Positions 4,992 through 51,400 of a stretch of DNA of 64,000 nucleotides are shown in pieces (the first letter of the stretch is position 1; every line of letters begins with the position of its first letter). The stretch lies in the sequence record OZ035789.1, one strand, 5' to 3'. Below the pieces are notes generated by a model, which made no database searches, was not told where the DNA came from, and saw only the letters and a list, made by a program, of their open reading frames with translations. This DNA comes from Tequatrovirus BCH953P4. Made by a program: the position numbers and the translations under genes.

Positions 4992-6616
<1,625 letters not shown>

Positions 6617-48253: not shown

Positions 48254-49269
48254 CATTATGTTCAGATAAGGTCGTTAATCTTACCCCGGAATTATATCCA
48301 GCTGCATGTCACCATGCAGATCAGACTATATCTCCAACTTGTTAAAGCAAGTTGTCTATCGTTTCGAGTCACTTGACCCTACTCCCCAAAGGGATAGTCG
48401 TTAGGCATTTATGTAGAACCAATTCCATTTATCAGATTTTACACGATAAGTAACTAATCCAGACGAAATTTTAAAATGTCTAGCTGCATCTGCTGCACAA
48501 TCAAAAATAACCCCATCACATGAAATCTTTTTAATATTACTAGGCTTTTTACCTTTCATCTTTTCTGATATTTTAGATTTAGTTATGTCTGAATGCTTAT
48601 GATTAAAGAATGAATTATTTTCACCTGAACGATTTCTGCATTTACTACAAGTATAAGCAGAAGTTTGTATGCGAACACCGCACTTACAAAACTTATGGGT
48701 TTCTGGATTCCAACGCCCGTTTTTACTTCCGGGTTTACTGTAAAGAGCTTTCCGACCATCAGGTCCAAGTTTAAGCATCTTAGCTTTAACAGTTTCAGAA
48801 CGTTTCTTAATAATTTCTTCTTTTAATGGATGCGTAGAACATGTATCACCAAACGTTGCATCAGCAATATTGTATCCATTAATTTTAGAATTAAGCTCTT
48901 TAATCCAAAAATTTTCTCGTTCAATAATCAAATCTTTCTCATATGGAATTTCTTCCAAAATAGAACATTCAAACACATTACCATGTTTGTTAAAAGACCT
49001 CTGAAGTTTTATAGAAGAATGGCATCCTTTTTCTAAATCTTTAAAATGCCTCTTCCATCTCTTTTCAAAATCTTTAGCACTTCCTACATATACTTTATTG
49101 TTTAAAGTATTTTTAATCTGATAAATTCCGCTTTTCATAAATACCTCTTTAAATATAGAAGTATTTATTAAAGGGCAGTCCTACAATTTAGCACGGGATT
49201 GTCTACTAGAGAGGTTCCCCGTTTAGATAGATTACAAGTATAAGTCACCTTATACTCAGGCCTCAATTA
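48254..49269 (-). mobile_element. td group I self-splicing intron
   Basis: 1016 nt; 5' end TAATTGAGGCCTGAGTATAAGGTGACTTATAC follows exon-1 ...TTGGGT; 3' end ...CATAATG; contains I-TevI ORF. Confidence 0.9.
48401..49138 (-). CDS. I-TevI: Intron-encoded GIY-YIG homing endonuclease I-TevI
   Basis: 245 aa; GIYQIKN...YVGSA; C-terminal zinc finger CKCGVRIQTSAYTCSKC. Confidence 0.92.
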   Translation of the reverse strand: MKSGIYQIKNTLNNKVYVGSAKDFEKRWKRHFKDLEKGCHSSIKLQRSFNKHGNVFECSILEEIPYEKDLIIERENFWIKELNSKINGYNIADATFGDTCSTHPLKEEIIKKRSETVKAKMLKLGPDGRKALYSKPGSKNGRWNPETHKFCKCGVRIQTSAYTCSKCRNRSGENNSFFNHKHSDITKSKISEKMKGKKPSNIKKISCDGVIFDCAADAARHFKISSGLVTYRVKSDKWNWFYINA

Positions 49270-49818
49270 ACCCAAGAAAACATCTACTGATCGTTGATAC
49301 CATTGTAAATCAAGATAACCATTACGCACATTAAATTGATAGAACATATGACAAGGTGGTAATGCCATCTGCTTGAGTTCAGCTGGATTCCATGCTGAAA
49401 CAATTTGACGCCTATCATTTGGCAGTTTTTTAATGCGATCAATAACTTCTATAATTTGGTCTACACCGCCAAAATCACGCCATTGTTTTCCATAAATTGG
49501 ACCAAGTTCACCACTATGGTATCCTAAATCTTTTGCTTGATTTTCGTAATTTTCATCCCAGACTGTTTTGCCTTGGATTAACGAATCATGCTGAATTAAT
49601 CGTAAATCATTGACATTTGTGCTTCCTGATAAAAACCATATTAACTCAGAAATGCAAGCTTTCCAGGCGAGCTTTTTAGTTGTTACTGCAGGAAAACCTT
49701 TGGTTAAATCCCAACGCAATTTAGTACCGAACAAAGCAATTGTTCCTGTGCCTGTTCGGTCATCAGTTTCATAACCATTTTCAAAAATGTCTTTAATTAA
49801 ATCTTGGTATTGTTTCAT
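49270..49818 (-). CDS. td: Thymidylate synthase, exon 1
   Basis: 183 codons ending ...VDVFLG at 5' splice site; active-site region PPCH. Confidence 0.92.
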
Positions 49819-49859
49819 TTAGTACCTTATATAAATTATAATACATTTTATGAAGCTAA

Positions 49860-50219
49860 TTAATATGGTTTAGCAACAAATTTTCTCTCAATTTCAGGTG
49901 TGAAATATAATTCTTTACCGCGTTTGGAAAAACGACCAATAATATGATAATTATTCTCATCAAACGTGATATTACCAATATCCATAGCTTTCAACCAAAT
50001 ATCGATATTTCTATCCAGCTTTATGTCAAAATTCCAATACGGAGAACTATTACCGAAAATACTGCAAGCGGATTCAGTGAAACAACTGCTATAAATCTTG
50101 TCTTTAGGAACTATTAATTGATAGACACCTTTAATAAACTGAGGACCCTGCCACTTTGGCTGTTTCGCGTCTTTTTCTAATAAAATAGGGTAATAATTAA
50201 AATTCATATTTTCCGCCAC
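49860..50219 (-). CDS. Hypothetical protein inserted between frd and td
   Basis: 119 aa from GTG (or 115 aa from ATG at ~50207); no recognisable motif. Confidence 0.5.
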   Translation of the reverse strand: MAENMNFNYYPILLEKDAKQPKWQGPQFIKGVYQLIVPKDKIYSSCFTESACSIFGNSSPYWNFDIKLDRNIDIWLKAMDIGNITFDENNYHIIGRFSKRGKELYFTPEIERKFVAKPY

Positions 50220-50227
50220 GCGTTATT

Positions 50228-51054
<827 letters not shown>

Positions 51055-51064
51055 ATTATTTTCC

Positions 51065-51400
51065 TTAAACAGACTTTTTCACAATTTTCCAATCAGCTTT
51101 AAACTGCTCGACGTCAGAATGGTAAATCCAGAATCCTGCGCTTTCTCCGTCTTCATAAAGAGGACATCCATCACATTCATCTTCCCACCCCATATCACGT
51201 AAAAGGTGTTCAGCTTTTTCAACAAGCTCAGAATCTTTACCGATGATATTAAAATACCATTTACCTCTAACTTCTGAATCTTTAATGCTCTGACGTTGTA
51301 ATCTCATTTTATTCTCCTCATGTAGTTGATAGGGTAATAGTATCACACTACTACCCTGTTGTAAACAATTATTTTTAAATTTTATCGAGCCACTTACCAA
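51065..51400 (-). CDS. Hypothetical protein (frd cluster)
   Basis: 111 aa max; start uncertain. Confidence 0.55.
   Translation of the reverse strand: MVSGSIKFKNNCLQQGSSVILLPYQLHEENKMRLQRQSIKDSEVRGKWYFNIIGKDSELVEKAEHLLRDMGWEDECDGCPLYEDGESAGFWIYHSDVEQFKADWKIVKKSV

Follow-up and report, generated by a model that had tools for sequence, protein, structure and literature searches.

td.1, a conserved gene between frd and td of T4-like phages that was most likely lost from phage T4

The ORF located between frd and td in Tequatrovirus BCH953P4 (sequence record OZ035789.1) is a copy of td.1, an already catalogued gene of T4-like phages, and a comparison of phage genomes indicates that this gene was most likely lost from T4 by a microhomology-mediated deletion, rather than gained by the phage considered here. 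Taken as a whole, the data are probably best explained by an old resident gene that was lost from T4 and whose product would be a co-expressed, non-catalytic binding protein. Because td.1 has been deposited and named in hundreds of genomes, its presence alone carries little weight, and the remaining interest lies in its apparently unmatched fold, its linkage to frd, and its function.

The frd–td locus and evidence for a coding gene

The 64,000-nucleotide stretch analysed in this study (hereafter, the window) is a segment of a Tequatrovirus (T4-like) genome, the right-hand 24 kb of which is 95–97% identical to phages such as vB_EcoM_G8 and BCH953P2. A preliminary description of this DNA had reported a 119-codon ORF in a gap of approximately 410 bp between frd and td, and this was accurate: the whole gap from the frd stop to the td start (49819..50227) is 409 bp, and the ORF list places an ORF at 49860..50219 on the minus strand, between frd and td exon 1, which encodes 119 amino acids when read from a GTG codon (translation MAENMNFNYYPILLEKDAKQPKWQGPQF) or 115 amino acids when read from the in-frame ATG at 50207. 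The locus contains the following features.

50228..50809, minus strand: frd (dihydrofolate reductase), the upstream neighbour, 97% identical to T4 Frd
50226..50234, minus strand: upstream copy of the direct repeat TAAATGAAA, in the frd stop context
50208..50219, minus strand: possible N-terminal extension of td.1 from a GTG start (MAEN-), giving the 119-aa reading
49860..50207, minus strand: coding sequence of td.1 (115 aa, with the stop codon at 49860-49862), a member of PHROG 1928
49819..49859, minus strand: td.1–td spacer, 41 nt
49833-49856, minus strand: middle-promoter-like site GCTTCA-N12-TAATTT, just upstream of the AAGG for td
49813..49821, minus strand: downstream copy of TAAATGAAA, in the td start context, 413 bp from the upstream copy
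about 49267..49818, minus strand: td exon 1 (thymidylate synthase), the downstream neighbour, with the I-TevI-containing group I intron next to it
about 48257-49269, minus strand: td group I intron, containing the I-TevI ORF (245 aa, 48401..49138)

The ATG start, which gives a coding sequence of 348 nt, is the one used in T6, T2H, Ge15, and most GenBank records, and the N-terminus MNFNYY is kept in relatives; the GTG-start extension is probably not used. The predicted product is a mildly basic protein of 13.6 kDa (pI 8.8). The GC content of td.1 (31.6%, with a GC3 of 28%) is close to that of its neighbours.

Across six informative pairs, the dN/dS ratios of td.1 (Nei–Gojobori) ranged from 0.045 to 0.29, with values of 0.045–0.18 within Tequatrovirus, 0.05 in the comparison with Mosigvirus, 0.13 between two metagenomic copies, and 0.29 between two Kanagawaviruses. 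This range is similar to that of frd (0.07–0.24), and the substitution pattern indicates that td.1 is a genuine protein-coding gene under purifying selection. The low ratios, together with the occurrence of homologs in many genera, argue against a chance reading frame. A non-functional or chance ORF, which would also have to account for the confident fold prediction described below, has a negligible probability and is refuted by the selection analysis.

Several features suggest that td.1 is expressed together with its neighbours. It shares its coding strand with frd and td, and no terminator-like site was detected in 49200-51200, making co-transcription likely. The 20-nt spacer from the frd TGA stop to the td.1 ATG contains only a weak Shine–Dalgarno-like sequence, GGCGGA. 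In most relatives, the td.1 start and the frd stop overlap or are directly adjacent (−1 to −23 nt), which suggests translational coupling; in NHEP36 and the metagenomic contig L013, the td.1 ATG overlaps the frd stop as ATGA, an arrangement found for td in T4. The 41-nt spacer on the other side of td.1 carries the Shine–Dalgarno-like AAGG for td and the site GCTTCA-N12-TAATTT, which fits the combination of a MotA box and a −10 element that characterises the middle promoters of T4. The pattern occurs 18 times in the window, more often than in shuffles (7.4 ± 2.5), and the site is a putative middle promoter. The promoter-like module of roughly 28 nt is missing in Ge15, PTK, and NHEP36, where the spacers are 13–15 nt, and thus appears to be optional. 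Co-expression of td.1 with frd and td is therefore regarded as likely.

Distribution of td.1 and the origin of the T4 junction

Within Tequatrovirus, the presence of td.1 is the majority state. A megablast search with the frd–ORF–td segment as the query matched 550 phage records, 352 of which, including T6, AR1, PST, and HP3, contained the full arrangement at 90–98% identity. In a tblastn search with the td.1 protein, 553 records were matched, 361 at ≥90% identity (T2, T6, RB7, Shfl2, etc.) and 192 at <60%. The contiguous overlap junction, counted with a 43-nt probe spanning the T4 junction, was present in only 60 records, against the approximately 352–361 with td.1. About 32 of these 60 belonged to T4, to laboratory phages derived from it, and to near-identical phages (RB55, RB59, F1, 112, and G28), and the other 28, at approximately 91% identity, were Dhakavirus phages of the IME08 type.

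The gene has been catalogued as td.1 in T2H (AY262132, ABI48932), as RB32ORF229c in T6 (AXN58269), and as PHROG 1928, and is thus not new. The T2H and T6 entries, to which no function has been assigned, contain the same 348-nt coding sequence at the same position between frd and td, and their products share 96–98% amino-acid identity with that of the window, from which they differ by two to five residues. The match to PHROG 1928 (annotated as "unknown function") had an E-value of 9e-35 and extended over residues 8-114 of the protein and positions 2-124 of the 126 in the profile. All 154 members of the 90%-identity cluster of td.1 are named "hypothetical protein".

Diverged homologs of td.1 (31–64% identity) were located directly after frd, on the same strand, in Mosig-, Jiaoda-, Kanagawa-, Roskilde-, and Marfavirus phages. 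The homologs directly 3′ of frd were found in the following phages and contigs.

JD18: Jiaodavirus
PEi26 and Kosakonia 305: Kanagawavirus
Potts1: Marfavirus
FBB1: Roskildevirus
PTK: Mosigvirus
NHEP36: unclassified
L013 and L014: two metagenomic T4-like contigs
Erwinia and Serratia phages

The divergence of these homologs from the window copy paralleled the divergence of Frd, as seen in the following identities to the window sequences.

T6: td.1 98%, Frd 96%
PTK: td.1 92%, Frd 86%
L013: td.1 61%, Frd 49%
Most distant genera: td.1 31–45%, Frd 46–50%, Td 78–83%

In NHEP36 (L012 617-2424), Frd was only 59% identical to that of the window, whereas td.1 and Td were 92% and 89% identical, respectively. 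The combination of a distant Frd with a close td.1 and Td suggests that recombination occurred at or close to the frd/td.1 boundary.

In several lineages, a second ORF occurs between frd and td, namely PEi26 ORF-252, Potts1 gp177, a 151-aa protein of FBB1 (QOI66447), and ORFs in Kosakonia 305, L013, and L014 (L005:2817-3173, L010:2317-2676, L013:3332-3673, L014:3344-3688, L006:2790-3143, and L007:2056-2511). This ORF is a paralog of td.1 (hhalign probability 98.5%, E = 2.5e-15, 99 columns), and all members in both the first and second slots match PHROG 1928. The second-slot proteins of Kanagawavirus, Marfavirus, and Roskildevirus share the QxKW, HG-Y, and GRFxKxG motifs with td.1, but differ from it by an insertion of approximately 20 residues (P-T-I-D-x-Y-K-R) after QKKW and have lengths of 113–151 aa. 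The second-slot ORF is absent from Tequatrovirus, which has one copy of the family, and a hidden Markov model (HMM) scan of all six-frame ORFs detected no further td.1 paralogs in the window. The slot between frd and td thus holds zero, one, or two family members, depending on the lineage. A 195-aa ORF (P0016; L008:4001-4588; OR941409.1, GCA_035134945.1) combines the last ~45 residues of a JD18-type td.1 with an unrelated N-terminal part; td and nrdA are also split near it, which points to a rearranged genome or a misassembly, and it was set aside as a chimeric ORF in a rearranged contig rather than an informative fusion.

The overlap of frd and td in T4, mentioned in the preliminary description, was confirmed in NC_000866, where the td end lies at locus position 5113 and the frd start at 5110, giving a 4-nt ATGA overlap. 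The flanking genes of T4 are 97–98% identical to those of the window (98% for the first 180 aa of Td), but T4 lacks the 413 bp between the TAAATGAAA copies. The window and T6 match T4 without mismatch up to ...TATATAAATGAAA, and the match resumes from CAATACC..., so that the alignment with T4 that had been proposed delimits an extra segment of exactly 413 bp flanked by TAAATGAAA repeats. The repeat is 9 bp long, with 11 of 12 positions matching when it is taken over 12 nt, and a single copy is left in T4, where it produces the ATGA overlap. When the complete T4 genome was scanned in any frame with profile HMMs, no member of the td.1 family was detected (best E = 0.5), whereas the same scan of the window as a control gave an E-value of 7.6e-38. 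The preliminary description was therefore right that T4 has no counterpart of this ORF, which is a real gene.

The description of this ORF as inserted was not supported. A recent insertion of accessory or mobile DNA into the frd/td junction of an ancestor resembling T4, with TAAATGAAA duplicated as the target site, would be consistent with the 9-bp direct repeat on both sides of the segment and with the compact junctions of T4 and IME08. However, td.1 is the majority state in the genus and occupies the same slot in at least five other genera, where its diverged homologs and paralogs parallel Frd in their divergence. Furthermore, TAAATGAAA is a generic stop/ATG/AAA (TAA-ATG-AAA) gene-junction sequence that occurs nine times in the window, the GC and GC3 contents of the segment resemble those of the flanking genes, and no transposase, integrase, or endonuclease domain was found. 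No terminal inverted repeats were present at the boundaries of the 413-bp segment, with only short AT-rich chance inverted pairs occurring elsewhere. A recent insertion is thus very unlikely, and a transposon insertion specifically was rejected because the segment lacks terminal inverted repeats and contains a single ORF without a transposase or integrase.

The TAAATGAAA flanks are better explained as deletion microhomology than as a target-site duplication. Cross-genus synteny, the generic nature of the repeat, the lack of inverted repeats, and the lack of a copy in T4 together make a deletion in T4 far more parsimonious than an insertion, and the polarity of the indel as a loss in T4 is strongly supported by these comparisons. 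In this scenario, T4 would have lost td.1 by a 413-bp deletion between the TAAATGAAA copies, creating the frd/td ATGA overlap. T4, the reference phage, would thus be atypical at this locus, with its textbook frd/td overlap representing a derived deletion scar, and absence from T4 should then not be read as insertion elsewhere. Because td.1 and the td intron coexist in the window, the deletion in T4 appears to be independent of the presence of the intron. The td intron of the window, like those of T4 and T6, contains a full-length I-TevI ORF (245 aa).

The ORF is not universal among the T-even phages, being absent from both T4 and Dhakavirus. In IME08 (Dhakavirus; L009 1480-1545), frd and td overlap at ATGA as in T4 (GTATACAAATGAAACAATACC), and the Dhakavirus Frd and Td share only 83% identity with their counterparts in the window. 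This compact junction may have arisen through a separate deletion at that microhomology or through lateral exchange, and the Dhakavirus group would then have lost td.1 separately or by exchange.

Sequence and predicted structure of the td.1 protein

The preliminary description had noted no recognisable motif in the protein, and this holds, with zero Pfam families matching the td.1 of the window at E ≤ 10. Sequence profiles from NCBIfam, PADLOC, and the PDB gave no match to td.1. Word-indexed and exhaustive HMMER searches of billions of proteins revealed no homologs outside phages, and the wide protein searches returned only 95–135-aa proteins from T4-like phage contigs. Two longer matches, the repeat proteins P0029 and P0033, were considered spurious.

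In an alignment of 37 sequences of the td.1 family, residues Q16, W19, G27, G91, K95, and G97 were invariant, and Y29, F93, and F102 were nearly so. The family motifs QxKW ... (H/K)G-Y ... GN ... G(R)FxKxG...F-P are all present in the td.1 of the window. The invariant positions include no acidic, histidine, or cysteine residues, which speaks for a binding module rather than an enzyme.

A model of td.1 was built with AlphaFold2 from a 16-sequence alignment (mean pLDDT 75.7, pTM 0.70). It contains strands at residues 8-12, 27-34, 48-50, 62-64, 80-82, 86-96, and 99-103 and a helix at 68-77, and td.1 is accordingly predicted to be a mostly beta-stranded, single-domain protein. Comparison of the model with solved folds yielded no significant match, with a faint OB-like order of elements as the only resemblance. 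The structural matches in BFVD were uncharacterised proteins of T4-like phages (Pectobacterium PM2, Serratia Muldoon, Erwinia Cronus, and Aeromonas phiAS5). The homology searches and structure prediction suggested in the preliminary description thus provided membership in PHROG 1928 and a model, but no known domain or fold.

The product names of td.1 in several GenBank records (MZ501106, MZ501052, NC_054937, OK272473, and OM386666) are unsupported and mutually inconsistent: "putative homing endonuclease", "putative glucose-1-phosphate adenylyltransferase", and a second "putative dihydrofolate reductase". These labels merit correction. A free-standing homing endonuclease, the label given in the Basel phages TadeuszReichstein and AugustSocin, has the GenBank annotation in its favour, and many seg and mob genes are carried nearby in T-even genomes. 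However, td.1 gave no match to GIY-YIG, HNH, LAGLIDADG, or PD-(D/E)XK families at E ≤ 10, the LAGLIDADG entries among the Foldseek results had TM scores of only 0.19–0.23 with E > 1, and no nuclease fold was recovered. Furthermore, a protein of 115 aa is too small to accommodate both a nuclease and a DNA-binding domain, the 37 sequences contain no conserved D, E, H, or C columns, and td.1 appears to be inherited vertically under purifying selection as the majority state in the genus, rather than occurring sporadically. The homing endonuclease label is therefore unsupported by motif, fold, size, or distribution, and a nuclease of this kind is highly improbable.

Candidate roles of td.1

The explanation that we consider probable as a whole is that td.1 represents a small, old, and vertically inherited family limited to T4-like phages, with its slot immediately downstream of frd. 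Its product would be a binding protein without enzymatic activity, synthesised before replication along with dihydrofolate reductase and thymidylate synthase, and its most probable partner would be the nucleotide-precursor machinery or the mRNA of that machinery. The binding role and the nucleotide-precursor partner, which extrapolate from conservation and gene order, are put forward only tentatively. Because T4 lacks any copy, td.1 is dispensable on laboratory hosts. The preliminary description had suggested accessory cargo, such as a selfish gene: the accessory part is consistent with the viability of T4 without a copy, whereas the selfish part is not supported, given the lack of an endonuclease domain or fold, the lack of inverted repeats, and a composition like that of the neighbouring genes.

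A somewhat doubtful alternative is that td.1 acts independently of its neighbours as an anti-defence or host-takeover effector, a small early protein that would bind and neutralise a host factor or sequester a signalling nucleotide and that would have been lost from T4 because laboratory hosts lack the target. A small gene in the prereplicative region that is dispensable in T4, contains no known domain, and belongs to a family confined to phages would be in keeping with such an effector, and the invariant or nearly invariant aromatic and basic residues (W19, K95, Y29, F93, and F102) would suit a ligand pocket. However, the synteny of td.1 is stable across at least six genera and purifying selection on it is as strong as on frd, whereas known counter-defence genes are usually patchy and turn over rapidly. 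When td.1 was compared with known defence and anti-defence families, no match was obtained in PADLOC or in Pfam, which includes Acb2_Tad1_hairpin. The linkage to frd, the enzyme-like constraint, and the retention of a duplicated pair in several genera somewhat favour a stable auxiliary role tied to the nucleotide-precursor genes over an effector engaged in an arms race.

The predicted structure also raises the question of an OB-fold-like nucleic-acid binder, for example, a regulator acting on the ssDNA or mRNA of the frd–td operon. The order of elements in the model (b1-b2-b3-helix-b4-b5) and a basic hairpin, whose K-R-G-K tip is part of the conserved GRFxKxG motif, resemble those of small OB-fold or S1-like beta-barrel binders, the pI of 8.8 would suit such a role, and the recurrent weak structural matches were enriched in OB and S1 proteins (eIF2alpha, S1, Teb1, Cdc13, RecO, RPA14/32, and Stn1-Ten1). 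However, no significant structural or sequence similarity to OB-fold or S1-like proteins was detected, and this specific assignment is rather unlikely.

A more speculative and unlikely reading is that td.1 and its tandem paralog have a new fold and act as physical partners of Frd and/or Td, either as a linker or as a folate- or nucleotide-binding accessory of the dNTP-synthesis complex, or else as a nucleotide "sponge" against a host immune signal. A detachable Frd/Td linker would have an effect comparable to that of the fused DHFR-TS of protozoa. If either were true, a function would be provided for one of the most widespread unannotated T-even genes, and its persistence beside frd across genera would be explained. 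As a strongly constrained gene that is linked to frd, sometimes duplicated, and without detectable fold relatives, td.1 would be a sensible choice for functional studies of the uncharacterised genes of T-even phages. A literature search for td.1, RB32ORF229c, and PHROG 1928 found no paper discussing the gene. The only paper found to cite AY262132 (Wilson and Edgell 2009, PMC2790892) reports nrdB/mobE comparisons and is silent on td.1, and a 2010 review of T4 relatives (PMC2993671) mentions frd and td solely as genes of auxiliary metabolism.

Two further small ORFs were observed on the minus strand between frd.1 and frd in the window. The ORF at 50809-51054 encodes 81 aa and corresponds to RB32ORF231c of T6, and that at 51065-51400 encodes about 111 aa and resembles RB51ORF237. 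Both are missing from T4, in which the gap between frd.1 and frd is 71 nt, and T4 thus appears to be streamlined over the whole gene 32–td region, beyond the frd/td junction.
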